From Narcine bancroftii (lineage: Eukaryota), in the NCBI RefSeq assembly GCF_036971445.1, contig NC_091473.1, positions 182,962,001 through 183,026,000 of the forward strand: 64,000 bases of DNA, given 5' to 3'. How positions within the stretch are numbered: position 1 is the stretch's first letter; the number at the start of each line of letters is the position of its first letter. A program made the position numbers and the translations under genes. The notes beneath the pieces were generated by a model. That model was given only the letters and a program-made list of their open reading frames with translations, was not told where the DNA came from and did no database searches. Shown here in pieces: positions 1 through 62,743 of the stretch.

Positions 1-1920
1 TACTGTCACTTTCGCCAATGGTCCCTTATATAATGCTTTAATCCAATGAATATACTTCTCTGGTAAACTGAATTTTTGCAATACTTTGAATAAATAATTC
101 CATTCTACTCTGTCAAAGGCCTTCTCTGCGTCTAAAGCAACTGCTACTGTTGGCGCTTTACTCCCTTCAACTGCATGAATTAAGTTAATAAATTTACAAA
201 TATTGTCTGTTGTGCGTCTTTTTTTAATAAATCCAGTTTGGTCTAGATTTACCATTTTCGGTACATACTCTGCTAATGTGTTTGCTAATAATTTAGCTAT
301 TATCTTATAATCTGTGTTAAGTAAAGATATTGGTCTATATGACGCTGGTGTGAGTGGATCTTTCCCTTGCTTTAGTATTACTGTAATTATTGCTGTTTTA
401 CATGAATCTGGTAAGCTTTGTGTTTTATCAATCTGGTTGATTACTTCCAGGAGGGGAGGAATTAATAAATCTTTAAATGTTTCATAGAATTCTATTGGGA
501 ATCCATCCTCTCCTGGTGATTTATTATTTGGTAATTTTTTTATTATCTCTTGTATTTCTACTATGCCAAATGGTTCTGTTAATTTATTTTGTTCCTCTAT
601 TTGTAGTTTTGGTAGTTCAATTTTAGTTAGAAATTCATCTATTTTCCCTTCTTTCCCTTCATTTTCAGTTTGGTATAATTGTTCATAGAATTCTATAAAG
701 TTTTCCTTGATCTCCTTTGGATTATATGTGATTTGTTTGTCTTTTTTCCTTGATGCCAATACCATTTTCTTAGCTTGTTCTGTCTTAAGCTGCCATGCTA
801 GAATTTTGTGCGTTTTTTCCCCTAGTTCATAATATTTCTGTTTTGTCTTCATTATGTTCTTCTCCACCTTATATGTTTGTAGTGTTTCATATTTTATTTT
901 TTTATCTGCCAATTCTCTTCTTTTAGTTGTATCTTCCTTCATTGCTAATTGTTTTTCTATATTTACTATTTCCCTTTCCAACCGCTCTGTTTCCTGATTA
1001 TAGTCCTTCTTCATCTTGGTTACATAACTTATTATTTGCCCTCTAATGAACGCTTTCATTGCATCCCATAGTATAAACTTATCTTTCACTGATTCCGTAT
1101 TTATTTCAAAATACATTTTAATTTGTCTTTCAATGAATTCTCTAAAATCCTGCCTTTTGAGTAACATGGAGTTTAATTTCCATCTATACATTCTTGGAGG
1201 AATGTCCTCTAACTTTATTGTCAATATTAAGGGTGAATGGTCCGATAATTTTCTAGCTTTATATTCTGTTTTTCTTACTCTATCTTGCATACGAGCTGAT
1301 AACAAAAATAGGTCTATTCTTGAGTATGTTTTATGTCTAGCCGAGTAATATGAATATTCCTTTTCCTTTGGGTGTTGTTTCCTCCATATATCCAAAAGTT
1401 GCATTTCTTCCATTGATTTAATTATAAATTTGGTTACTTTGTTCTTTTTGTTAATTTTTTTCCCAATTTTGTCCATATTTGAATCCAAATTCAGGTTGAA
1501 ATCCCCTCCTATTAATATGTTCCCTTGCGTATCTGCTATCTTCAAAAAAATATCTTGCATAAACTTTTGATCTTCTTCGTTAGGTGAATATACATTGAGT
1601 AGATTCCAAAACTCCGAATATATCTGACATTTTATCGTTACATATCTCCCTGTTGGATCTATTATTTCCTCTTCTATTTTAATTGGCACATTTTTACTAA
1701 TTAATATAGCTACTCCTCTTGCTTTTGAATTATACAACACTGCTGTTACGTGTCCTACCCAATCTCTCTTTAATTTCTTGTGCTCCAATTCAGTTAAATG
1801 TGTTTCTTGCACAAATGCTATATCAATTTTTTCTTTTTTCAGTAAATTTAGCAGTTTCTTCCTTTTAATTTGGTTATGTATTCCGTTAATATTTAAAGTC
1901 ATATAGTTCAGCGTAGCCAT
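1..1920 (-). CDS. L1 ORF2p (APE endonuclease + N-terminal RT), partial; runs off the window
   Basis: Hand translation from ATG 1920 gives MATLNYMTLNINGIHNQIKRKK..IAFVQETHL, GGDFN, YSRIDLFL, LSDHSP, KSPGEDGFP, YRPISLLNTDYK and LDAEKAFDRVEW. The frame is the same at position 1. Its absence from the ORF track is consistent with no stop inside the window. Confidence 0.93.
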   Translation of the reverse strand, partial: MATLNYMTLNINGIHNQIKRKKLLNLLKKEKIDIAFVQETHLTELEHKKLKRDWVGHVTAVLYNSKARGVAILISKNVPIKIEEEIIDPTGRYVTIKCQIYSEFWNLLNVYSPNEEDQKFMQDIFLKIADTQGNILIGGDFNLNLDSNMDKIGKKINKKNKVTKFIIKSMEEMQLLDIWRKQHPKEKEYSYYSARHKTYSRIDLFLLSARMQDRVRKTEYKARKLSDHSPLILTIKLEDIPPRMYRWKLNSMLLKRQDFREFIERQIKMYFEINTESVKDKFILWDAMKAFIRGQIISYVTKMKKDYNQETERLEREIVNIEKQLAMKEDTTKRRELADKKIKYETLQTYKVEKNIMKTKQKYYELGEKTHKILAWQLKTEQAKKMVLASRKKDKQITYNPKEIKENFIEFYEQLYQTENEGKEGKIDEFLTKIELPKLQIEEQNKLTEPFGIVEIQEIIKKLPNNKSPGEDGFPIEFYETFKDLLIPPLLEVINQIDKTQSLPDSCKTAIITVILKQGKDPLTPASYRPISLLNTDYKIIAKLLANTLAEYVPKMVNLDQTGFIKKRRTTDNICKFINLIHAVEGSKAPTVAVALDAEKAFDRVEWNYLFKVLQKFSLPEKYIHWIKALYKGPLAKVTV

Positions 1921-2359
1921 TTTATACTTCGTTTATCTTCCCTTTCCGTTTCTCCATCATTACCTTTCCTTCTTATCCATTTCTGCTTTCTTGTTTTGAA
2001 CACTTTATAAGGCAACATTTCTAAAACATCAAACATTTTCCCTATTCTCCTATTTAAAACTTCTTTAACCCCATTCTCCCCTCCCCCTCCTGAGTTGTCC
2101 TTTATCCCTTGTCGCACAACCACATCTCCCCTCTCCATTTGGATTTGCGAATTCACTCGCAAACATCAGCTGATTTTGCAGTGACCGTAACTCCTCCCCA
2201 CCCAGCCCCCCCAGAAAAGATTTCAATTTTCATATGTAACAAAGGTCACTCTTTTAATTCCCTCCTTATTCCCTCTATTCCCTTTCCCTCCCTTATTAAT
2301 TCTTGTCTATACTCTATATATTTTCCTCTAAATACGGATACATTCATGTATGCACACTG

Positions 2360-2365
2360 TATATA

Positions 2366-2411
<46 letters not shown>
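2360..2411. repeat. (TA)n/(CA)n microsatellite in the L1 inter-ORF spacer
   Basis: Direct read. Confidence 0.95.
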
Positions 2412-2418
<7 letters not shown>

Positions 2419-2462
2419 CCCTTTACACACATACATATAGACCGTGGTCATTTTTACTCTTA

Positions 2463-3704
2463 TTACATGTCTTCATCTCTCTGCTTGTTTTGTAGTTGTT
2501 CTGCAAATTTCCTTGCTTCCTCTGGATCCGAGAATAGTCTGTTTTGTTGCCCTGGAATAATTATTTTAAGTACCGCTGGGTACCTTAACATAAATTTATA
2601 TCCTTTTTTCCATAAGATCGTTTTCGCTGTATTGAACTCCTTCCTCTTCTTCAGGAGTTCAAAACTTATGTCTGGATAGAAAAAAATTTTTTGACCTTTA
2701 TATTCCAGTGGCTTTTTGTCCTCTCTTACTTTCTTCATTGCTTTCTCCAATATATTTTCTCTTGTTGTATATCTTAAGAATTTTACTAAAATGGATCTCG
2801 GTTTTTGCTGCGGTTGTGGTTTCGGGGCTAAAGTTCTATGTGCCCTCTCTATTTCCATTTCTTCCTGTAATTCTGGTCTTCCCAGGACCCTGGGGATCCA
2901 ATCTTTTATAAATTCTCTCATATTCTTCCCTTCTTCATCTTCCTTAAGGCCCACTATCTTTATATTATTTCTTCTATTATAGTTTTCCATTATATCTATC
3001 TTCTGAGCTAACAGCTCCTGTGCCCCTTTAGCTTTTTTATTAGATTCTTCTAATTTCTCTTTTAAGTCTTTTACTTCCATATCTACAAATGTTTCTCGTT
3101 TTTCCATATTTTCCACTCTTTTTGCCAATTCTGATATGGCCACTTCCATTTTATTCATTCTTTCTTCTGCATTCTTAATTCTTCTTTTTATCTCATCAAA
3201 TTCTTGTAATTGCCATTCTTTCACTGATTCCATATATTCTTTAAAAAAAGCTACATCCATTGTCTTGCTTTTCTCTTCTTCTTTTACTTCTTTCTGTTCT
3301 TCTTCTTCCTCTGGGTTGACCATCTGTTGTTTCCTTGTTTTCTTTTTACCCTCTTCTTTCTTGTTGTCGTTATTTTCTCTGTTCTGCACCTGCTGCTGTG
3401 CTGCAGGTGTCTCTCTCAGCTGTGGAGATCGACTCCGCAGCTGTTCCCCCCTCCCGTCAGTGTGTTTTTTTTCATGCGCATCGCACATGCGCGACTCATC
3501 GCGCATGCGCGGTTGCACACTTTTACTCGGCTCTGCGAGCCATTTTTGTAGTCCCGAGCCCGGGACTTCCACTGACCTGTGGGAGCGGGCTTCTCTCTCT
3601 CCGGCGGGCCTCTTCGGACAGGTAAGGCCTTCACCTTCTTCTTCCGAAGTCTTTCCTTCTTCTTTTCTTCCCGTTGATTTTGGTTTTTCTTTCTTCGCTG
3701 CCAT
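2463..3704 (-). CDS. L1 ORF1p (coiled coil + RRM + CTD, Transposase_22-like), 413 aa
   Basis: Motifs ENYNRRNNIKIVGLKE, IERAHR, PRSILVKFLRY, IFFYPDIS and YPAVLKI. First ATG is at 3704; the track start at 3713 is a GTG. Confidence 0.95.
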   Translation of the reverse strand: MAAKKEKPKSTGRKEEGKTSEEEGEGLTCPKRPAGEREARSHRSVEVPGSGLQKWLAEPSKSVQPRMRDESRMCDAHEKKHTDGRGEQLRSRSPQLRETPAAQQQVQNRENNDNKKEEGKKKTRKQQMVNPEEEEEQKEVKEEEKSKTMDVAFFKEYMESVKEWQLQEFDEIKRRIKNAEERMNKMEVAISELAKRVENMEKRETFVDMEVKDLKEKLEESNKKAKGAQELLAQKIDIMENYNRRNNIKIVGLKEDEEGKNMREFIKDWIPRVLGRPELQEEMEIERAHRTLAPKPQPQQKPRSILVKFLRYTTRENILEKAMKKVREDKKPLEYKGQKIFFYPDISFELLKKRKEFNTAKTILWKKGYKFMLRYPAVLKIIIPGQQNRLFSDPEEARKFAEQLQNKQRDEDM

Positions 3705-3840
3705 TTTCTTCACACTTTTACTTTTACTTTGTTTGGTTTTTAAGTTTGTGCCTTTGCTTTTTCTCTATCTTTTTTTAACTTTTCTGGAGAGGGCTGGAGT
3801 TCCCCTACCGGCCACTACTCCATCATGTGACTCCCCTCTT

Positions 3841-6910: not shown

Positions 6911-7021
6911 ATCTCGGAATCCTGTGATTGGCTTGTGCTCTCAGTTGGGCAGTGCATAACTCCAATTGCCAAGTGTTTCATTGTTTCTCCCCCGGCTTCA
7001 TTTAATCTCATTATATTTCAG

Positions 7022-7941
7022 CCAACATTGCCGCCATCACAATTCTGTCCCAGGGAAAATGCGGCCTCTCCAAATGCATCTCCTACTATCTGGTGGGGAT
7101 GGCAGTGTCCGACCTTCTCGTCCTCCTCACCGGGGTTCTACTCAACAAGATCATTGGCATTTACTTCACAGGGAGCCACCTGTCCACCACGCCGATATGC
7201 AGTTTAAAAATTGTTCTCATTTATGCCTCCCGGGATGTCTCTGTGTGGCTGACAGTCGCTTTCACCTTCGACCGTTTCGTGGCCATTTGCTGGCGAAAAC
7301 TGAGAACTTGGTATTGCAGGCAACAGGTGGCGGCAGGGGTGGTCTGGACTGTATTCGCCCTGAGCTGCTTGCAAAATGTCCCATGGTACTTTAAGTTTGA
7401 ACCTTTGTACATTATCAACGGGACGCCATGGTACTGCCACACAAAACCCAGTTTCTACACCACCCCGTCGTGGATCATATTTCAAGCATCTAATTACATT
7501 GCTACCCCCTTCCTCCCCTTCTTTCTCATCCTATCCCTCAATGCCCTGACCATCAGGTTCATTGTGGCGGCAAGCAAGACCCGCAAAGCTCTCCGCCGCC
7601 ACAGTAACCATGCGGATCCCAGGGACTCAGAAATGGAGAACAGGAAGAGGTCCATCGTTTTGCTTTTCACCATCTCTGGCAGTTTCGTGCTCCTGTGGAT
7701 GACGTTTCTTGTCCACTTCCTTTACTACCGCATCACAAGCACCCTATACTACTCGGGTTACAACGACCCCGTATTCATCATGCAGGAGGTGGGCTATATG
7801 CTGATGCTTCTCAGCTGCTGCACCAACACCTGCATTTATGCGGTGACCCAGCGCAGGTTCAGAGAGGAGTTGAAACCATTACTGAAGCGCCCACTACTCT
7901 GGGCAACAAGCCTCTTCCGAAGGTTGGCTTCCCAATTATGA
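7022..7941 (+). CDS. GPR139/GPR142-like orphan class A GPCR, coding exon 2 (rest of TM1 to TM7 and C-tail); whole protein 329 aa
   Basis: Acceptor atttcag|cc at 7021/7022. Seven hydrophobic segments across the joined exons; TM2 MAVSDLL, TM3 TFDRFVAIC, TM5 PFLPF..LNALT, TM7 SCCTNTCIY, helix 8 QRRFREEL; stop TGA 7939-7941. Confidence 0.92.
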
Positions 7942-31695: not shown

Positions 31696-32582
31696 TATGT
31701 GCAAAACATTCAATAATACAGTTTAAAGTTGTTCATAGAGCTCATATGTCTAAAGATAAACTCCATCGCTTTTATTCTCATATCGATCCTATATGTGATA
31801 AATGTCAATTGGAAATAGCTTCCCTTACACATATGTTTTGGCCCTGTCCCTCTTTACAGAATTATTGGAAGGAAATTTTTTCCATTATATCTACTGTTTT
31901 GAATATTGATTTACAACCACATCCCATTACTGCAATTTTTGGATTACCTATGATAGATTTGACTTATTTATCTCTTCCTGCGGATCGTATGATTGCTTTT
32001 CTTACACTAATGGCTAGAAGATCTATACTATTGAATTGGAAAGAGGTTAATCCTCCCACTGTTTTCCAATGGTTTACCCAAACTATACTATGTTTAAATT
32101 TAGAGAAAATTAGAAACTCTGTCTATGAATCCCCTTCTAAGTTTGAGTTAACCTGGCGACCATTTATTCAATATTTTCATTTGTGGTGAGTTGATCTGGC
32201 TCTGTTTTCTTTCTATGATTATGTATGATAATTGGGCTGTAAGATGAGATCGGAGTGATCGGCGTGGTTTAGCTATATCTGTAGGTTTTTTTTAAAGTTT
32301 TTTTTAAGTTTTTTTTAATTCAGATTTGTTTTTTCTTCTTTTTGGGGTTTTTTTTTCGCTTTTTTCATATATTGTTATTAATTATATCTTTTTTTTTAGA
32401 GATAGTTCACACCCTAAACTGATCAAAAAAATTTTTTTATGATATATTTTTATTCTGTAATATTATTGTTTAATATCTCTGTATTAATTCATTACTTACT
32501 ATGTATTTTTTATATCTCTTTGAACTGTATGTGTTTATAAATTATAATAATAATAAAAAGATTGAAAAAGAAAAAAAAAGAA
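31696..32582 (+). mobile_element. 5'-truncated L1 3' end (ORF2 zinc knuckle, T-rich 3'UTR, polyA)
   Basis: IQFKVVHRAHMS..CDKC..ASLTHMFWPC..ARRSILLNWK..TWRPF; stop at 32189; AATAAA then an A-tail at about 32550-32580. Confidence 0.92.
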
Positions 32583-33670
32583 GAAATATCTCTTTTTTTT
32601 TATATGTTATTTTTTGTAATTTTATTTAGTATCTGATTTAATTCTTCCCAAAACGTATTCACTTTTGTTCATACCCAAGTTGCATTTAACGTTGTTCCCA
32701 TTTCCTTCTTACAGTGAAAACATCTATCCGATGATGTTGAATCTCATTTTTTTTAATTTCTGAGGAGTGATATATACCCTGTGTAACCAATTATACTGTA
32801 TCATGTGTAACCTTGTGTTTATTGTATTCTTCATAGCTCCAGAACATGACTTTTCCCATACTTCATTTTTTATCTTTCTGTTTAGATCCTTTTCCAACTT
32901 CTGCTTAGGTTTGTAGTTTATTTCATTTTCCTTATCTTGCAGCTTAATGTACATGTTGGTTATAAATCTTTCAATTATCATTGTGTCTGTAATCATGTAT
33001 TCAAAGCTGCTTCCTTCAGGTCATCTAAGACTGTTTCCCAATTTATCCTTTAAATAAGCTTTCAATTGGTGATATGCAAACATTGAACCATGAGTTATTC
33101 CATATTTATACTTCAACTGTTCAAATGTTAATAAATTATTTCCCAAAAAAACAGTTTTCTATTCTTTTAATTCCTTTTCTCTCCCATTCTCTAAAGGAAA
33201 GGTTGTCTACTGTAACAGGGATTAGTGGATTTTGCGTCAATAATAATTTTGGTATTTGATAATTCATTTTTTTCCTTTCTAAGTGGATCTTCTTCCACAT
33301 ATTAAGTAAATGATGCACTACTGGTGAGTTTTTATATTGCACCAGCTTTTCATCCCACTTAAGTATATGTTCCGGTATTTTCCCCTATTTTATCTATCTC
33401 TATCTTAGACCAGTCTGGTAAAAATCTGATAAATATCTTAATTGTGCAGTTCTGTAATAATTTCTAAAATTTGGTAACTGAAAACCACCTTGATTATACC
33501 TCTCTGCAAATTTATCTAATGCTAACCTTGGATTCCTCTCTTTCCACAAGAATTTCCTTATTATTCTGTTTAATTCCTTAAAGAATTTTTCTGTTAAAAG
33601 AATAGGTAACGTTTTAAATAAGTATTGTATCCTTGGGAACACATTCATTTTAATGTAGTTTACCTCCCGG
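32583..33670 (-). mobile_element. Degraded L1 ORF2 C-terminal fragment, tail-to-tail with the previous L1
   Basis: IKMNVFPRIQYLF..GGFQLPNFRNYY and IQYNWLHRVYITPQKL, with several stops and frameshifts. Confidence 0.88.
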
Positions 33671-41200: not shown

Positions 41201-44200
41201 ACTCAACAGGTTGAACAGTGTTGTTTTATGTAGCAAAGGTAAAGATACATCACCGACATTTCGGGCTTGAGCCCTTCATCAGTGTGCGAGATAACGTCCA
41301 AACAAAGGAGTAGCAAAGGAAGGAGATGATAGGTAGAGAAAGGAGGGAGGGGACAACAGTGATGGGGGGGGGATGCTGGGGGTGGGTGGGTGGAAGGACA
41401 GGATGGGGACGGGGGGACGAAGAGATGAGCAGGCTTAATGGGAGGCTTTGATGCTCTTACCATGTGGCTGGACATCTAATCAGGTTTCGTTTCTCCAATC
41501 TGAGGGTGGTCAGGGTGGAACAGTGCATGGGGCCCCAGACAGACATGAGAGCACTGGGGTGAGACCCAGAATTGCAATAGGCGGCCACTGGTAGGTCGCT
41601 GGGGTTGCGGACGGAGCGGAGGTGCTGAGCGAAGCAATCTCCCCGTCTGTGGCCAGTCCCTCCAATGCAGGGAAGGCCACAAAGGGAGCAGCGGACCCAG
41701 TAGGTCTGCCCTCTGGATGTGCAGGTGAAGGGCGGTTTCACGTGGAAGGCCGGTTTGGGGCCCCGGCCCATAGTGAGGGGAGGAGGCGTGGGCACAAATG
41801 TTGCACCTCCTGCGGGCACCGGGGAAGGGGGAGTGCGATGGATGGGGAGGGATGAGTGCTCGAGGGAATCATGGAAAGAGGGGGGCGTGGCAAGATGGCG
41901 TAAAGATCAGACGTGCCTTCCAGTCCTCTCCTAACTCTATCTTATTGTTTTGTCTAGAAATGCCCGTTAAAATTCTTTAAAAGTTTAGATAATTTCAGTG
42001 CTGTTAATTTAACTTATGATGGTACAATTGGTGGAAAAGAGCAAAAAAAAATGACAACAGATCATCAAAAAACTACATTTTCCAAAAGTTCAAGTTTTGG
42101 AGCCTACCTACAGGAAAGACACCGGGACTCAGCGTGAAATGGATCCCAGGAGAAAGGTACAGTGTTCGGATGTAGAGCTCTATGTTACATCGGTAGAGCC
42201 CCCTAAAGAGGGCGCCAAACAGCCTTTAGGACAAAGAGTTACTCAAAGGCATTTGTCAACTGTAGAGCTGGCGCTGCAAACTGCATCTCTTGAGATAAAA
42301 GAACCTATACAACTTGATGTACTGGGAGAACTTAATACATTATGGACTGGGGAAAACCCCGGCCAGCGTCCTCCAGTTATTGCTGGAGAGGCTGTGGCTG
42401 GGGTTTCCACACGCAGTCATACTACAAGGAAGGCAACCAGAATGAAGGAAGGAACAGAAGATCCTTTGGTTATGCAGAAGAAGCAGGAATCTGTTGAGCC
42501 AAAATCTCTTCCAATTGAAAAGATTTTTGTGAATCTTGAATCTAAATTATCTTATACAATGCAGGGATTATCCAAGATTATGACTGAACTTGGTACTAGG
42601 TTTAATACTCTGGTGAAAATACATTCTCAACAGATGGCTAAGTTTGGAGCTTTTAAGCTTGAAGTGAGAGATAAATTTAATTCGTGTGAAGAAGATATAG
42701 ACGAAATACGGGATCAAGTTTTTGATGTGACCAAAATGGTCGAAGACTTACAAACTCAAAATAAAAATTTGGTGAAAAAGATTGATTATTTGAAAAACCA
42801 ATCCAGACGGAACAATATAAAGATTATTGGTTTGCCAGAAGGTATGGAGGGACCAGACCCAAGAAAATTTTTTACTGAATGGATTCCGCAGGTGCTGGGT
42901 CAAGAACATTTCTTGGAAGGTATAATACTGGGACGTGCTCACAGAGCCTTGCGTAGAAGACCTATTTCAGGTCAAAGTCCAAGACCTGTTTTGGTTCATT
43001 GCTTGAATTATTACGACAGAGAAATAATTTTACGAATGGCTATTAGAAATGCACAACAGAGAAAATCACCCTTGATGATTCAAAATAATCGAGTTTTCTT
43101 CTATGCGGATTTGAGTCAAGAAGTTATGTTCCAACGACGGGAATTTAATCCTGCTAAAGAGTTGTTGTGGAAGAAAGGTTACAAGGCAACCTTTAGATAT
43201 CCAGCTGTTTTGAAGGTTTTTCAAGATGGTTGCCAACCAAAGTTCTTTGATTCTCCAAAGGAAGCTATAGCATTTGCTCGAGAGCTGCCAATTACTCAGT
43301 TTCAACAGAGACATAGTCCGCCGCGATCTCTAAGGAGACAAGAGATGGAAGAAAAGAGCCGTGCTCCAAGAAGGAATGGTTGTAATGGTGACTCGGCAGT
43401 TGGAGCTGATTAAAAGAAGAGTTGTCCTTTTTTTTCTAATGTTTTTTTTTAAAAAAAAAGGGATATTAAATAATGATGATGTTAGTTTAAGATGAAGTGA
43501 GAGTTGGGGGAGAGAACTGGATAGGCACTATTTCCTGAAAGTCATCTGCTACGTGTGAGTTATCTCACACCCATTTTCTTTTGGGAGTTACCGCATTGCG
43601 CAGTTTAGACGGGAGGGGGTATTTTTAACCTCCTACCCGTTTTTTTTTTTCCTTTTTTTTGTATTATTAGATTAAAGAGTGAAGGGGTTTTTTTTTTGGT
43701 TTAAATATTTTAAAAAAGCATAAGAAAGTATTTGATTGTTTAAAAAACTAAATATTGATGTGGTTTTTTTTGTAAAGTTTATTCAGTAGATAAGGAATAT
43801 CTGAAATTTAAATGTGAATGGGATGGATAAGTTTTTTTAATATTTTTTCTTTAACTTTAAGGTGAAAGGAGTGGTAATTCTGGTGTATATTATTTTGCTA
43901 TTTTAGTTATAGAATGAAGGCAATAATGGTGAAAGTTATAAATTGAATTGTACAATTCTTAATGAGGCTTGAATTTTGTTTGTGGTTTATGCTCCATTTG
44001 TTGAAGATATAGATTTCATTGTAGATGTGTTTTTATTATTTGGATATCTGAATTTTAACATAATGATTGGGGATATTTAAATGTGGTATTGGAGCTTTTA
44101 TTGGATAACTATTCAAGAGTAAAAGGGAAAAATGGTGGAAGAGTACTAAAATTTAATTGTATAATGCTTAATGAGGTTTGAATTTTGTTTTAAGATGGTG

Positions 44201-44885
44201 GTTTAGGTGACTAATATGATGATAGATGTGAAATTAGTTGATATTTGGTGAAGGTTTATCTCTATAGAGAATTTTTTTTTCATCTTTTTTTTCATGCTAC
44301 AATTTTTTTTTTAAGAATTGATTATTGTTTAAGAATTTTTAATAGATAATGTTACTAACTTTACTAATTTTTTATATTAAGTTTGAGTTAAATATATGTT
44401 TCATCTTAACTCTGTTTGTTAAATATATGCATTTAAGTTTGATTTAAATATGTTTTTTAAGTCTGATATCTTAGTATTAATTACTTTTCTTTTTGTTAGT
44501 ATTTTAATCGGTTATGTTTTTGTTTTTTTTTGTAAGTGGGTTTTTTTCTCACATATATTATTAACTTTATTAATTCTTCACTCTTTATTTTGGGGGGAAA
44601 GGGGGGGGTTGGATTAATTTGAGTTGGGTTATTAATGTGTAATAATTATTGGGGAGGGTATAGTTTATTTAGATTACTGATACTGTATTGTAATTTTATT
44701 ATTTTATTCTTAATTTTTTTTAAATGTAATCCTATATGTTATTCATGTTATAAAATCTTAAATAAAGTTTTAAAAAAAAAGGAATCATGGAAAGAGCTAC
44801 ACTTGAATTAAGAATAAACAGTTTAAAAGACAAAAATACTAGACTGTACTTACACCGAACAAACTCATTGCATGAATATATAAAC
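35227..44885 (-). CDS. Candidate cytoplasmic mini-exons of the IgV receptor: 44885-44854, 40950-40931, 38119-38087, 36004-35969, 35250-35217 (stop 35229-35227); terminal exon from 35107
   Basis: Each lies in a non-repeat island with an AG acceptor and a GT donor (gtaagt, gtaggt, gtaaga, gtaagg, gtaaac). Joined after the TM exon they stay open: GKFIYSCNEFVRSRSSETQMSPLNRERTYMVIRPCLLQQPDMCRQLVRK*. Exon usage and frame are uncertain. Confidence 0.45.
36990..37355. mobile_element. PIF/Harbinger-like MITE inserted in a CR1 3' end
   Basis: Perfect 14-bp TIR CCCTTTCACACTTG (36990-37003) / CAAGTGTGAAAGGG (37342-37355). CR1 sequence resumes on both sides. Confidence 0.7.
38165..40430. mobile_element. 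Rex-Babar fragments in alternating orientation
   Basis: VERITSYQSLGV..SFYRCTVET..TGCITVWY; AFADDPTVVGLV; RLRNSFFLQAVR. Confidence 0.78.
41180..41880 (-). mobile_element. Penelope-like GIY-YIG remnant (target of the half-L1 insertion)
   Basis: ORF 41457..41819 (-): YWVRCSLCGLPCIGGTGHRRGDCFAQHLRSV..LPVAAY. Confidence 0.75.
41881..44780 (+). mobile_element. Complete ORF1-only non-autonomous L1 derivative (HAL1-like 'half-L1'), 2.9 kb
   Basis: Perfect 16-bp TSD GGAATCATGGAAAGAG at 41865-41880 and 44781-44796. 5' end GGGGGCGTGGCAAGATGGCG, ORF1, only a decayed endonuclease remnant, AATAAA at 44761 and an A-tail. Confidence 0.9.
42016..43413 (+). pseudogene. L1-type ORF1p of the half-L1, with one premature TGA at 42052
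   Basis: In-frame ATG 42016 (MMVQLVEKSKKK*QQII..), then open through QSRRNNIKIIGLPEG, RAHR, PRPVLV, FFYADLS and YPAVLKV. Confidence 0.85.
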
Positions 44886-54415: not shown

Positions 54416-54782
54416 CACCTCGCAGTGAGACTTATCTCCTCGAGCCCTTTCTCCAAGTCACCTCAGCACCCGGTGGCCTGCACCATGCACAGAAAACAGG
54501 ATTCAGCAAATGATGTATGGATGGTAAAGCTCTGCCTCACGTGTGAGGTACATTTAACAGGAAATGCTGGTCAAATCCTTGGACAGAAGGGTCCATCAGG
54601 GTCATTGAACGGTTATGGTTTCTGAGCTGAATTTGTACTCCCCCCCACCCCCCACCTTCTGCCCAGTACCTAGGTCCTGGAGTGTACTGGTCTTCAATCT
54701 CCTGTAACATTTGCAATGTCCTCATGTTTGAGGACATCTGATCATCCAAACCCATGGCAATGCTCAAATGTCGACACACCCC

Positions 54783-57700
54783 AAGGTCAATACATCAATG
54801 TTAATGCGCCAATATCACTTCACCAATGTCACTGCACCAATTTCAATGCATTAATGTCAATATATCAATGTCACTGCACCAATGACAATGCATCAATGTC
54901 AATGCACCAATGTTAATACATCAATGTCAATGCACCAATGACAATGTATCAATGTCCAGTACCTAGGTCCTGGAGTGTACTGGTCTTCCATCTCCTGTAA
55001 AATTTGCAATGTCCTCATGTTTGAGGACATCTGATCATCCCAACCAATGGCAATGCTCAAATGTCGACACACCCCAATGTCAATGCTTCAATGACAATAC
55101 ATCAATGTCAATACATCAATGTTAATGCGCCAATATCACTTCACCAATGTCACTGCACCAATTTCAATGCATTAATGTCAATATATCAATGTCACTGCAC
55201 CAATGACAATGCATCAATGTCAATGCACCAATGTTAATACATCAATGTCAATGCACCAATGACAATTCACCAATGTCAATGCATCAATGTCATGGCACCA
55301 ATGTCAATGAACCAATGATAATACATAAATGTCAATGCACCAATGACAATGCACCAATGTCAATACATCAATGTCACTGCACCAATGTCAATACATCAAT
55401 GTCAATGCACCAATGTCAATACATCAATGTCAATGCACCAATGTCAATGTGCCAATGTCAATGCATCAATGTGAATGCTCCAATATCAATGAATCAATGT
55501 CAATACATCAATGTCAATGCATCAATGTCAATGCATCAATGTCACTGCACCAATGTCAATGAACCAATGACAATACATCAATGTCAATGCACCAATGACA
55601 ATGCACCAATGTCAATGTGCCAATGTCACTGCACCAATGTCAATACATCAAAGTAAATGCACCAATGTCAATATATCAATGTCAATGCATCAATGTCAAT
55701 GCATCAATGTCACTGCACCAATGTCAATGCATCAATGTCAATGCACCAATGTTAATACATCAATGTCAATGCACCAATGACAATGCACCAATGTCAATGC
55801 ATCAATGTCACTGCACCAATGTCAATACATCAATGTCACTGCACCAATGTCAATACATCAATGTCAATGTGCCAATGTCACTGCCCCAATGTCAATACAT
55901 CAATGTCAATGCACCAATGTCAATACATCAATGTCAATGCACCAATGTCAATCTGCCAATGTCAATGCATCAATGTGAATGCTCCAATATTAATGAATCA
56001 ATGTCAATACATCAATGTCAATGCATCAATGTCACTGCACCAATGTCAATGAACCAATGACAATACATCAATGTCAATGCACCAATGACAATGCACCAAT
56101 GTCAATGCAAGAATGTCAATGTGCCAATGTCACTGCACCAATGTCAATACATCAAAGTCAATGCACCAATGTCAATATATCAATGTCAATGCATCAATGT
56201 CAATGCATCAATGTCACTGCACCAATGTCAATGCACCAATATCAATACGTCAATGTCAATGCACCAATGTCAATTAACCACTGACAATGCATTCATGTCA
56301 ATGCACCAATGACAAAGTGCCAATGTCAGTGCATCAATGTCAATGCTCCAATATCAATGCATCAATGTCAATGCACCAATGTCAATACATCAATGTCACT
56401 GCACCAATGTCAATACATCAATGTCAATGCACCAATGTCAATGCATCAATGTCACTGCACCAATTTCAATGCACCAATATCAATACATCAATGTCAATGC
56501 ACCAATGTCAATGTGCCAATGTCAATGCATCAATGTCAATGCTCCAATATCAACGCATCAATGTCAATGCACCAATGTCAATGCATCAATGTCAATGCGC
56601 CAATATCACTGCATCAATGTCAATGCACCATCGACAATGCATCAATGTCACTGCACCAATGACAATGCATCAATGTCAATGCACCAAAGTTAATACATCA
56701 ATGTCAATGCACCAATAACAATGCACCAATGTCAATGCATCAATATCACTGCTCCAATGTCAATGCACCAATATCAAAACATCAATGTCAATGCACCTAT
56801 GTCAATGCATCAATGTCATTGCACCAATGACAATGCATCAATGTCAATGCACCAATGACAATGCACCAATGTCAATGCATCAATGACAAGGTATCAATGC
56901 CAATGTGCCAATGTCACTACACCAATGTCAATGCATCAGCGTTAATGCACCAATGTCTATACATCAATAACAATGCATCAATGTCAATGCGCCAATGTCA
57001 ATGCACCAATGTCAATGCATCAATGTCAATGCTTCAATGTCAATGCATCAATGTCAATGCATCAATGTCAATACATCAATGTCAATACATCAATGTCAAT
57101 GCATCAATGTCACTGCACCAATGTCAATACAACAATGTCACTGCCCCAATGTCAATGCACCAATGTCAATACATCTATGTAAATGCACCAATGTCAATGC
57201 ATCAATGTCACTGCACCAATGTCCATGAACCAATGACAATGCATCAATGCCAATGCACCAATGACAATGCATCATTGTCCTGTACTTAGGTCCTGGAGTG
57301 TACTGGTCTTCCATCTCCTGTAACATTTGCAATGTCCTCATGTTTGAGGACATCTGATCATCCAAACCCATGGCAATGCTCAAATGTCGACACACCCCAA
57401 TGTCAATGCATCAATGTCAATGCACCAATGTCAATGTGCCAATGTCAATGCATCAATGTCAATGCTCCAATATCAATGAATCAATGACAATGCATCAATT
57501 TCAATACATCAATGTCAATGTGCCAATATCACTGCACCAATGTCACTGCACCAATGTCAATGCATTAATGTCAATATATCAATGTCAATGCACCAATGAC
57601 AATGCATCAATGTCACTGCACCAATGACAATGCATCAATGTCAATGCACCAATGTTAATACATCAATGTCAATGCACCAATGACAATGCACCAATGTCAA

Positions 57701-60700
57701 TACATCAATGTCACTGCACCAATGTCAATACATCAATGTCAATGCACCAATGTCAATACATCAATGTCAATGCACCAATGTCAATGTGCCAATGTCAATG
57801 CATCAATGTGAATGCTCCAATATCAATGAATCAATGTCAATACATCAATGTCAATGCATCAATGTCAATGCATCAATGTCACTGCACCAATGTCAATGAA
57901 CCAATGACAATACATCAATGTCAATGCACCAATGACAATGCACCAATGTCAATGCAAGAATGTCAATGTGCCAATGTCACTGCACCAATGTCAATACAAC
58001 TGCACGAAAACCAACAAGGTCGGGTCAGATACAGCAATGAGCTCTCTGAACCCTTCTCCATTAACAATGGCGTGAAGCAAGGCTGTGTTCTCGCACCAAC
58101 CCTCTTTTCAATCTTCTTCAGCATGATGCTGAACCAAGCCATAAAAGACCCCAACAACGAAGACGCTGTTTACATCCGGTACCGCACGGATGGCAGTCTC
58201 TTCAATCTGAGGCGCCTGCAAGCTCACACCAAGACACAAGAGAAACTTGTCCATGAACTACTCTTTGCAGATGATGCCGCTTTAGTTGCCCATTCAGAGC
58301 CAGCTCTTCAGTGCTTGACGTCCTGCTTTGCGGAAACTGCCAAAATGTTTGGCCTGGAAGTCAGCCTGAAGAAAACTGAGGTCCTCCATCATCCAGCTCC
58401 CCACCATGACTACCAGCCCCCCCACATCTCCATCGGGCACACAAAACTCAAAACGGTCAACCAGTTTACCTATCTCGTCTGCACCATTTCATCAGATGCA
58501 AGGATCGACAATGAGATAGACAACAGACTCGCCAAGGCAAATAGCGCCTTTGGAAGACTACACAAAAGAGTCTGGAAAAACAACCAACTGAAAAACCTCA
58601 CAAAGATAAGCGTATACAGAGCTGTTGTCATACCCACACTCCTGTCCAGCTCCGAATCATGGGTCCTCTACCGGCACCACCTACGGCTCCTAGAACGCTT
58701 CCACCAGCGTTGTCTCCACTCCATCCTCAACATCCATTGGAGCGCTTTCATCCCTAACGTCGAAGTACTCGAGATGGCAGAGGTCGACAGCATCGAGTCC
58801 ACGCTGCTGAAGATCCAGCTGCGCTGGATGGGTCACGTCTCCAGAATGGAGGACCATCGCCTTCCCAAGATCGTGTTATATGGTGAGCTCTCCACTGGCC
58901 ACCGTGACAGAGGTGCACCAAAGAAAAGGTACAAGGACTGCCTAAAGAAATCTCTTGATGCCTGCCACATTGACCACCGCCAGTGGGCTGATAACGCCTC
59001 AAACCGTGCATCTTGGCGCCTCACAGTTTGGCGGGCAGCAACCTCCTTTGAAGAAGACCGCAGAGACCACCTCACTGACAAAAAGCAAAGGAGGAAAAAC
59101 CCAACACCCAACCCCAACCAACCAATTTTCCCCTGCAACCGCTGCAACTGTGTCTGCCTGTCCCGCATCGGACTTGTCAGCCACAAACGAGCCTGCAGCT
59201 GACGTGGACTTTTTACCCCCTCCATAAATCTTCGTCCGTGAAGCCAAGAATGTCAATACATCAAAGTCAATGCACCAATGTCAATATATCAATGTCAATG
59301 CACCAATGTCAATACATCAATGTCAATGCACCAATGTCAATTAACCACTGACAATGCATTAATGTCAATGCACCAATGACAAAGTGCCAATGTCAATGTA
59401 TCAATGTCAATGCTACAATTTCAATGCATCAATGACAATGCACCAATGTCAATACATCAATGTCACTGCACCAATGTCAATACATCAATGTCAATGCACC
59501 AATGTCAATGCATCAATGTCACTGCACCAATTTCAATGCACCAATATCAATACATCAATGTCAATGCACCAATGTCAATGTGCCAATGTCAATGCATCAA
59601 TGTCAATGCTCCAATATCAATGCATCAATATCAATGCACCAATGTCAATGCACCATTGACAATGCATCAATGTCACTGCACCAATGACAATGCATCAATG
59701 TCAATGCACCAAAGTTAATACATCAATGAAAATGCACCAATGACAATGCACCAATGTCAATGCATCAATATCACTGCTCCAATGTCAATGCATCAATGTC
59801 AAAACATCAATGTCAATGCACCTATGTCAATGCATCAACGTCATTGCACCAATGACAATGCATCAATGTCAATGCACCAATGACAATGCACCAATGTCAA
59901 TGCATCAATGACAAGGTATCAATATCAATGCGCCAATGTCACTGCACCAATGTCAATGCATCAGCGTTAATGCACCAATGTCTATACATCAATAACAATG
60001 CACCAATGTCAATACATCAATGTCAATGCACCAATGTCAATGTGCCACTGTCAATGCACCAATGTCAATGTGCCAATGTCAATGCATCAATGTCAATGCT
60101 CCAATATCAATGAATCAATGTCAATGCATCAATGTCAATACATCAATGTCAATGTGCCAATATCACTGCACCAATGTCACTGCACCAATGTTAATACATC
60201 AATGTCAATGCACCAATTACAATTCACCAATGTCAATACATCAATGTCACGGCACCAATGTCAATACATCAATGTCAATGCACCAATGTCAATACATCAA
60301 TGTCAATGCACCAATGTCAATGCACCAATGTCAATACATCAATGCCAATACACCAATGTTAATGCATCAATGTCACTGCACCAATTTCAATGAACCAATG
60401 ACAATGCAGCAATGTCAATGCACCAATGACAATGCACCAATGAAATGCATCAATTTCAATCTGCTAATATCACTGCACAAATGTCAATACATCAATGTCA
60501 ATGCACCAATGTCAATACATCAATGTCACTGCACCAATGTCAATGCACCAATGTCAATACATCAATGTCAATGCACCAATGTCAATGTGCCACTGTCAAT
60601 GCACCAATGTCAATGTGCCAATGTCAATGCATCAATGTCAATGCTCCAATATCAATGAATCAATGTCAATGCATCAATGTCAATACATCAATGTCAATGT

Positions 60701-62700
60701 GCCAATATCACTGCACCAATGTCACTGCACCAAGGTCAATGCATTAATGTCAATATATCAATGTCAATGCACCAATGACAATGCATCAATGTCACTGCAC
60801 CAATGACAATGCATCAATGTCAATGCACCAATGTTAATACATCAATGTCAATGCACCATTGACAATGCACCAATGTCAATGCATCAATGTCACTGCACCA
60901 ATGTCAATACATCAATGTCACTGCACAAATGTCAATACATCAATGTCAATGCGCCAATGTCACTGCCCCAATGTCAATACATCAATGTCAATGCACCAAT
61001 GTCAATACATCAATGTCAATGCACCAATGTCAATGTGCCAATGTCAATGCATCAATGTGAATGCTCCAATATCAATGAATCAATGTCAATACATCAATGT
61101 CAATGCATCAATGTCAATGCATCAATGTCACTGCACCAATGTCAATGAACCAATGACAATACATCAATGTCAATGCACCAATGACAATGCACCAATGTCA
61201 ATGCAAGAATGTCAATGTGCCAATGTCACTGCACCAATGTCAATACATCAAAGTCAATGCACCAATGTCAATATATCAATGTCAATGCATCAATATCAAT
61301 GCATCAATGTCACTGCACCAATGTCAATGCATCAATGTCAATGCACCAATGTTAATACATCAATGTCAATGCACCAATGACAATGCACCAATGTCAATGC
61401 ATCAATGTCACTGCACCAATGTCAATACATCAATGTCACTGCACCAATGTCAATACATCAATGTCAATGTGCCAATGTCACTGCCCCAATGTCAATACAT
61501 CAATGTCAATGCACCAATGTCAATACATCAATGTCAATGCACCAATGTCAATGTGCCAATGTCAATGCATCAATGTGAATGCTCCAATATCAATGAATCA
61601 ATGTCAATACATCAATGTCAATGCATCAATGTCACTGCACCAATGTCAATGAACCAATGACAATACATCAATGTCAATGCACCAATGACAATGCACCAAT
61701 GTCAATGCAAGAATGTCAATGTGCCAATGTCAATGCATCAATGTGAATGCTCCAATATCAATGAATCAATGTCAATACATCAATGTCAATGCATCAATGT
61801 CAATGCATCAATGTCACTGCACCAATGTCAATGAACCAATGACAATACATCAATGTCAATACATCAATGTCAATGCACCAATGTCAATGCATCAGTGTTA
61901 ATGCACCAATGTCAATACATCAATAACAATGTGTCAATGTCAATGCTCCAATGTCAATACACCAATATCAATACATCAATGTCAATGCCCCATTGTCAAT
62001 ACATCAATGTCAATGCATCAATGTCACTGCACCATTGTCAATGAACCAATGACAATGCATCAATGTCAATCCATCAATGTCAATGCACCATTGTCAATGA
62101 ACCAATGACAATGCACCATTGTCAATGAACCAATGACAATGCATCAATGTCAATGCATCAATGTCAATGCACCATTGTCAATGAACCAATGACAATGCAC
62201 CAATGTCAATGCATCAATGTCAATACATCAATGTCAATACACCAATGTCAATGCATCAATGACAATGCATCAATGTCAATACATCAATGTCAATACACCA
62301 ATGTCAATGCGGCAATGTCACTGCACCAATGTCAATGCATCAATGTCAATGCACCAATGTCAATGCATCAATGACAATGCATCAATGTCTATGTGCCAAT
62401 TTCAATGCACCAATATCAATACATCAATATCAATGCTTCAATGTCAATGCTTCAATGTCAACGCATCAATGTCAATGTGCCAATGTCACTGCACCAATTT
62501 CAATACACCAATATCAATACATCAATATCAATGCATCAATGTCAATGCATCAATGTCAATGAGCCAATGTCACTGCACCAATGTCAATATACCAATGTCA
62601 ATGCGCCAATGTCAGTGCTTCAATGTCAATGCATCAATTTCAATGCACCAATGTCACTGCACCAATGTCAGTGCAAAAATGTCTATGCACCAATATAAAT
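54783..62700. repeat. About 8-kb tandem satellite of CAATGT + CA(A/C)T(G/A)CA(C/T) units (14-bp core CAATGTCAATGCAY) with higher-order structure
   Basis: Direct read. Interrupted by copies of a 120-bp non-satellite block and by an RTE insertion. Confidence 0.97.
57999..59248 (+). mobile_element. 5'-truncated RTE-clade LINE inserted in the satellite
   Basis: GVKQGCVLAPTLF, LLFADD, RWMGHV and a C-terminal Cys/His finger; stop at 59202. 12-bp TSD AATGTCAATACA at 57987-57998 and 59249-59260. Confidence 0.95.
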
Positions 62701-62743
62701 AATCCAACATCAATGATACATCTACCTCAGTAAGTATTTTCCA

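Follow-up and report, generated by a model that had tools for sequence, protein, structure and literature searches.

HAL1 elements are non-autonomous derivatives of LINE-1 (L1) which carry only open reading frame 1 (ORF1), have poly(A) and target-site duplications (TSDs), and need the reverse transcriptase (RT) and endonuclease (EN) of L1 (PMC5753468, PMC5322556). They arose several times in mammals (PMC5753468, PMC5322556, PMC13756887, PMC2241872). Non-autonomous LINEs with ORF1 but without ORF2 are also found in other clades, such as HeT-A (Jockey clade) and Ag-Sponge (CR1 clade) (PMC5786205). Searches of the open-access literature brought up no description of HAL1 from Narcine or any other cartilaginous fish. 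Here we describe a 2,900-nt element at 41881-44780 (plus strand) of a 64,000-nt stretch of the Narcine bancroftii genome (contig NC_091473.1, positions 182,962,001 to 183,026,000; the whole stretch is called the window). The best reading of this element is a HAL1-like, ORF1-only non-autonomous L1 family moved in trans. We estimate a probability of roughly 75% that this copy is full-length and young and belongs to a many-copy L1 derivative which has ORF1 and a ruined endonuclease, is devoid of RT, and likely borrows the ORF2 protein (ORF2p). The family may already be catalogued in Repbase/Dfam.

The element has the following parts, all of which are on the plus strand:

41865-41880: left TSD, 16 bp (GGAATCATGGAAAGAG), 100% identical to 44781-44796
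41881-42015: 5' untranslated region (UTR), with G5 at 41881-41885 and CAAGATGGCG at 41891-41900, followed by ATG at 42016
42016-43413: L1-type ORF1, 465 codons, with a coiled-coil and the conserved C-terminal part of L1 ORF1s
43414-43697: inter-ORF region, between the ORF1 stop and the start of the endonuclease alignment
43506-43640: C-retaining island within it, with two predicted hairpins (43553-43570 and ~43607-43642)
43698-44325: decayed apurinic-type endonuclease remnant, the 5' part of ORF2, ~630 nt
43917-43981: first copy of an internal duplication (65-68 nt), 82% identical to 44123-44190
44123-44190: second copy of this duplication; both copies lie within an ungapped high-depth contig (43886-44232) of public run X8
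44326-44771: T-rich 3' region without detectable ORF2 remnant, with AATAAA at 44761-44766
44772-44780: A-tail of nine A, read from the sequence
44781-44796: right TSD, 16 bp (GGAATCATGGAAAGAG), 100% identical to 41865-41880

The TSD 16-mer occurs exactly twice in the window, both times at the edges of the element, and no second copy of the element was detected in the window by blastn. The initial annotation had proposed a 2.9-kb unit with a perfect 16-bp TSD, a G-run 5' end, an ORF1 open except for one TGA, a polyA signal with an A-tail, and a scrambled endonuclease remnant instead of an RT, and all of these features were recovered. Its "YY1-like" label for CAAGATGGCG is a putative assignment. 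Judged from its sequence, the 5' UTR is likely an internal promoter.

ORF1 extends from ATG 42016 to TAA 43413 and contains a single in-frame TGA at 42052-42054 (codon 13). A protein search with ORF1 gave 13 hits among 4,191 candidates, the best seven of which are all N. bancroftii gene models. Three of these proteins (P0001, P0002, and P0014) are annotated copies with 91-96% protein identity to ORF1, and their location on contigs of three different lengths suggests dispersal. Since all three have a sense codon at the TGA site (Arg in P0001 and P0002, Gln in P0014), the TGA probably arose after insertion. The L1 origin of ORF1 was evident from tblastn against the ORF1 of a neighboring L1 at 1-3836 of the window (E-value = 2.6e-52, 32% identity over 334 amino acids) and from a tree in which it grouped with L1 ORF1s.

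To characterize the region downstream of ORF1, we used an ORF2 profile built from 63 fish-type L1 ORF2 proteins, taken from among at least 120 full-length relatives of the window's L1. The profile matched 43730-44074 (profile positions 25-142) with 17.4 bits, a score that none of 200 dinucleotide shuffles equaled (maximum 8.0). A frameshift-aware alignment widened the remnant to 43698-44248 (score 71.0 vs. a maximum of 52.2 in 25 shuffles), and tblastn with the ORF2 of the neighboring L1 also detected it (E-value = 8.6e-6). The remnant contains seven stops in 115 main-frame codons in addition to frameshifts: the QET motif is lost and GD-FN is broken by a frameshift, and YAP and RIDY (the latter at 44314) are still legible. 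No ORF2 remnant was found in 44331-44780 (score 31.3 vs. a shuffle mean of 33.5), a whole-window scan with the profile gave no other ORF2 match inside the element, and no RT or C-terminal ORF2 remnant was detected by the profile. Thus, the element lacks a functional ORF2, as HAL1 does, and does not have the intact EN-RT ORF2 of an autonomous L1. We discarded a similarity between its 3' part and the 3' UTR of an L1 fragment (31698-32560) because it reflects base composition: 79 of 300 shuffles scored as high.

Contigs from public runs bear on whether the ruined ORF2 belongs to the family or is private decay of this copy. Eleven of the 13 runs listed, from five studies, contain part of the stretch, and contigs of four runs (X1, X5, X8, and X11) were aligned. 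In run X1, a flank contig with zero differences has a depth of 6.78, and four ORF1 contigs sum to a depth of 9,018 at 42913 and 12 remnant contigs to 24,067 at 44018; such sums indicate an order of magnitude only, and stand for neither a copy number nor a ranking of the element's parts. Single contigs of run X8 have depths of 382 and 420 in ORF1, 328 in the remnant, and 250 at the 3' end, with 2.1 for a flank contig. None of the runs containing the stretch is listed as RNA; run X5, which is guessed to be RNA and serves as DNA-type evidence, has contig depths of 110-212 in ORF1 and 71-116 in the remnant. As an order of magnitude, this amounts to some hundreds to thousands of copies, and the depths of ORF1 and tail are comparable.

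The lesions of the remnant are common to these dominant contigs. Remnant contigs of X5, X8, and X11, which come from three studies, cover approximately 43851-44232 with 6-7 differences and no gaps. The X5 contig (43851-44175) has six differences and no gaps, and none of the five differences listed falls in the stops at 43904, 43910, and 43970. Because this contig matches ungapped and its listed differences lie elsewhere, at least two of the three main-frame stops and the GD-FN frameshift are family traits. The internal duplication lies mostly within the X5 contig and wholly within the X8 contig. Across 13 long contigs closely matching the element, 57 of 3,994 nt differ (1.4%), a set which left out four more distant sister-family pieces, and 1% of the X1 contigs run on into unlike sequence.

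That broken L1 copies are common in general is the only point in favor of a lone L1 which suffered deletion and decay once inserted. The dominant contigs carry the same frameshift, duplication, and stops, and private post-insertion decay is therefore refuted: the tail is present at high depth in four runs, and the same lesions are on long contigs in three. Moreover, a perfect TSD and 1-2% divergence are incompatible with so decayed a remnant, and decay of the remnant is strand-asymmetric, whereas the listed (best-supported) private changes include both G-to-A and C-to-T. We give this explanation practically no credence. The ruin of the endonuclease predates the insertion at 41881-44780, so the initial annotation was correct in regarding the element as already ORF2-less when it inserted and as part of a non-autonomous family rather than a lone deletion. 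The family is multi-copy and ORF2-less, with the linkage of ORF1 and tail in other copies deduced from depth parity.

At both ends of the element (41866-41987 and 44550-44793), the outermost bins of run X1 have a summed depth approximately 2-4 times that of ORF1; X8 shows no such rise. The raised ends might reflect a shorter derivative composed of 5' and 3' parts, or ends common to other families; none of the joints shown backs such a derivative. The rise in X1 depth toward the 3' end was not used as evidence of 5' truncation.

The composition of the tail is strongly strand-biased. On the sense strand of 43681-44771 (1,091 nt), we counted 59 C vs. 197 G (P-value = 1.5e-18) and 511 T vs. 324 A. 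In the remnant, C occupies 11 of 230 sites at codon positions 1+2 and 6 of 115 at position 3. In ORF1, it is found at 196 of 930 sites (21%) at positions 1+2 and at 43 of 465 (9%) at position 3, and the difference between ORF1 and remnant at positions 1+2 is significant (P-value = 2e-10). At 4-fold sites of ORF1, T accounts for 45% and C for 11%. Pro, Thr, and Ala together make up 3.5% of the remnant and Ser 0.9%, the corresponding values for the 63 intact homologs being 12% and 7.5%; loss of C has turned Ser, Pro, Ala, and Thr codons into Phe, Leu, Val, and Ile codons. Among new mutations in genomic L1 copies, C-to-T and G-to-A have both been reported to be the most frequent (PMC7140322). Considering that decay as host DNA should affect both strands alike, the skew was likely built over many copying cycles. 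Non-coding regions of zebrafish L1 are T-rich (PMC5381506), and the 3' UTR of another L1 fragment in the window is 51% T and 9% C; thus, the T-rich, C-poor bias is a trait of the lineage. It may stem from biased RT errors, deamination of C to U, damage linked to transcription, or selection favoring U-rich RNA.

Under this same bias, ORF1 has kept C at codon positions 1+2 and lost it at position 3, which argues that it has been constrained as a protein. Codon-position composition hence points to selection on the ORF1 protein. This lends indirect support to the proposal in the initial annotation that the family keeps ORF1 under selection, although the constraint may have acted before the loss of ORF2 rather than after it. 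For this reason, a recent chimera has to be weighed, in which the 5' half of an active L1 was joined to the tail of an old dead L1 and amplified in trans, so that ORF1 is intact from youth and not from need. The family is indeed young (1.4% from the dominant contigs), an autonomous parent could have passed on the codon-position pattern, and sister ORF1 groups with 48-56% overall identity exist as candidate carriers of ORF2. On the other hand, X5 and X8 show comparable depths for contigs of ORF1 and of the tail, no loose end among those listed shows ORF1 entering other sequence after its stop, the third positions of ORF1 have the bias of the tail, and the order of ORF1, spacer, and endonuclease is collinear with that of a normal L1. 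We consider the chimera unlikely.

Phylogenetic analysis was based on the conserved part of ORF1 (53 of 55 rows, none of which is mammalian; P0002 and P0007 were dropped because they aligned over <120 residues). The element was placed in an 11-row Narcine-only clade with support of 100/100, which is nested in a clade whose named rows are rays. Two sister groups in Narcine (the groups of P0003, XP_069773500, and of P0004, XP_069782276) show approximately 67-74% identity in the conserved part and the 48-56% overall mentioned above. Among the proteins compared, the nearest ORF1s come from rays and bony fish, which speaks against descent from a mammalian L1. A separate origin from mammalian HAL1, in cartilaginous fish, is therefore likely on the basis of the Narcine-only group within the ray clade. 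A metagenome scan gave 37 loci, all of which are distant (24-48% identity except for one short 61% segment); the weak endonuclease match of one of them (L021) proved to be an undamaged enzyme from a different type of LINE. Several ray host gene models (P0006, P0007, P0140, P0143, P0285, P0288, and P0291) are fused to pieces of the ORF1 group, which suggests exonized element copies or annotation artifacts.

The copies cluster within 1-2% around one dominant sequence, and ORF1 domestication is known (PMC4161310), both of which would fit one or a few source loci: a defective L1, retained by the host because of its ORF1 in the manner of L1TD1, would shed retrocopies and owe its C-to-T skew to transcription of the source locus. 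Such a locus would hardly explain the exact L1-type G-run 5' end and the AATAAA plus A-tail at the 3' end, nor the several diverged ORF1 subfamilies in the same species, and no orthologous single gene was seen when the closest proteins from rays were inspected (~42-45% identity; several of them are fusions with unrelated gene models). This origin appears very improbable.

The L1 at 1-3836 (minus strand) is an A-rich, fish-type L1 with an intact ORF1 at 2466-3704, which is 81% identical to Narcine P0145, and an ORF2 that is open to the window edge (640 amino acids, EN and the start of RT). It is a candidate autonomous family by sequence, unrelated as a parent of the element: its ORF1 belongs to another clade together with P0145 and P0288, with 41% identity in the conserved part, which rules out parentage. 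Nor does anything point to it as the ORF2p donor, a role for which it had been suggested. Two further L1 3'-end ORF2 fragments lie tail to tail at 31698-32570 (plus) and 32477-33669 (minus). The plus-strand fragment is rich in T, as is its 3' UTR, and carries an A-tail; hence, a T-rich L1 lineage with a coding ORF2 existed in this genome; this lineage is a possible helper.

Several observations weigh against a trans-mobilized ORF1-only family. No contig bridging ORF1 into the remnant was found among the contigs listed, the TSD was read for the 41881-44780 copy only, and no other copy was seen whole. A rare version of this ORF1 with an intact ORF2 may exist beyond the loose ends and joints listed, and run X1 may derive from the very sample that yielded the window. 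Only the lineage profile and a tblastn search using the ORF2 of the neighboring L1 reveal the remnant, and Pfam identified no family in the three read-through frames of the tail. No curated Pfam ORF1 family was detected in ORF1 either, only weak coiled-coil hits; the ORF1 of the L1 at 1-3836 likewise gave only such hits. The composition argument fits a constraint that acted before ORF2 was lost as well as one that acted afterwards. Finally, the mammalian L1 target is TT/AAAA, and the start of the TSD lacks such an A-run.

The inter-ORF island differs in composition from the tail: 29 of its 135 nt are C and it contains five CpG, compared with 59 C and one CpG in the 1,091 nt of the tail (P-value = 6e-9). 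It folds modestly better than its shuffles (z-score -2.1; 8 of 200 shuffles folded as well), and 43561-43660 has a z-score of -2.95. The island draws many more contigs, and other sequences contribute a related loose end on its upstream side, at 43539. No Rfam family was found for it (three chance-level matches, all below gathering scores). These properties suggest that the island is likely a constrained cis element. It has been predicted that ribosomes enter at the long spacers of L1s to translate ORF2 (PMC5381506); retention of the island in an element that lacks ORF2 would hint at a different function. The island and the spacer of the L1 at 1-3836 (2146-2177, minus strand) resemble each other in a short motif and in the hairpin after it, which includes one compensatory pair. 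This similarity was not significant (84 of 300 shuffles) and was defined after seeing both sequences, and is thus a lead only; it was not found downstream of ORF1 in L002, the one metagenome L1 locus with a full ORF2.

For an ORF1-only family moved in trans, the history may be as follows. An ancestor would have lost the RT half of ORF2, and the leftover endonuclease would have drifted over many copying rounds to a T-rich, C-poor sense strand and gained the internal duplication, whose copies have since diverged by 18%, while ORF1 and the 135-nt island resisted the drift. By analogy with mammalian L1 and HAL1, the element would be transcribed from its internal 5' promoter, the ORF1 protein (ORF1p) would coat its own RNA, and a helper ORF2p would nick the target and reverse-transcribe from the poly(A) end, leaving the TSD. 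We infer mobilization in trans by L1 ORF2p from the TSD, the A-tail, and the missing RT.

Compared with known systems, the element shares with mammalian HAL1 an L1-derived, ORF1p-only design, a poly(A) tail, and a TSD (the latter two read in the 41881-44780 copy only). It differs in its cartilaginous fish host, in the Narcine-only group of its ORF1, and in retaining ~630 nt of heavily eroded endonuclease and a long inter-ORF region. HeT-A and Ag-Sponge have the same ORF1-only design, but they represent different LINE clades and live in insects; HeT-A is confined to telomeres, whereas the Narcine element is inserted among interspersed repeats. The 5' part of rat RNHAL1 is 98% identical to active L1 (PMC2241872), whereas the Narcine ORF1 has no near-identical autonomous partner among its hits. 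HAL1 had been said to be described mainly from tetrapods; the papers cited here describe it from mammals, not from tetrapods broadly. Fish-type autonomous L1s (the L1 at 1-3836; zebrafish L1, PMC5381506) have a homologous ORF1, a long inter-ORF region, T-rich non-coding parts, and AATAAA plus A-tail in common with the element, which differs from them by the absence of a functional ORF2 and from the A-rich window L1 by its ORF1 clade.

Elsewhere in the window, a 311-codon open frame at 7006-7938 (plus strand) is G-protein-coupled receptor-like and, by eye, similar to the GPR139-like part of P0007; it is a probable host gene or pseudogene. A long AT-rich tandem array of short 14-bp-like units occupies 54660-62716 and is broken at ~58000-59240 by sequence with an RT-like match.

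A broader reading, which we regard as doubtful but conceivable, is that the element represents an old half-L1 lineage in electric rays. The three Narcine ORF1 subfamilies (~50-55% identical overall) would then all be ORF2-less and would have diversified under ORF1-only selection, with the dead endonuclease acting as a neutral recorder of a strand-specific C-to-U mutator in the cartilaginous-fish L1 cycle and the inter-ORF hairpins as a cis signal for helper ORF2p.

If the HAL1-like reading is true, ORF1-only L1 parasites extend from mammals to cartilaginous fish by a separate origin, which would back production of an element's own ORF1p as a repeatable route to capturing L1 RT. The element has a built-in control, in that a once-coding endonuclease drifted to neutral composition beside an ORF1 that resisted. 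With hundreds or more near-identical copies, selection on ORF1p and the cause of the T-rich bias of fish L1 would be testable within one genome.

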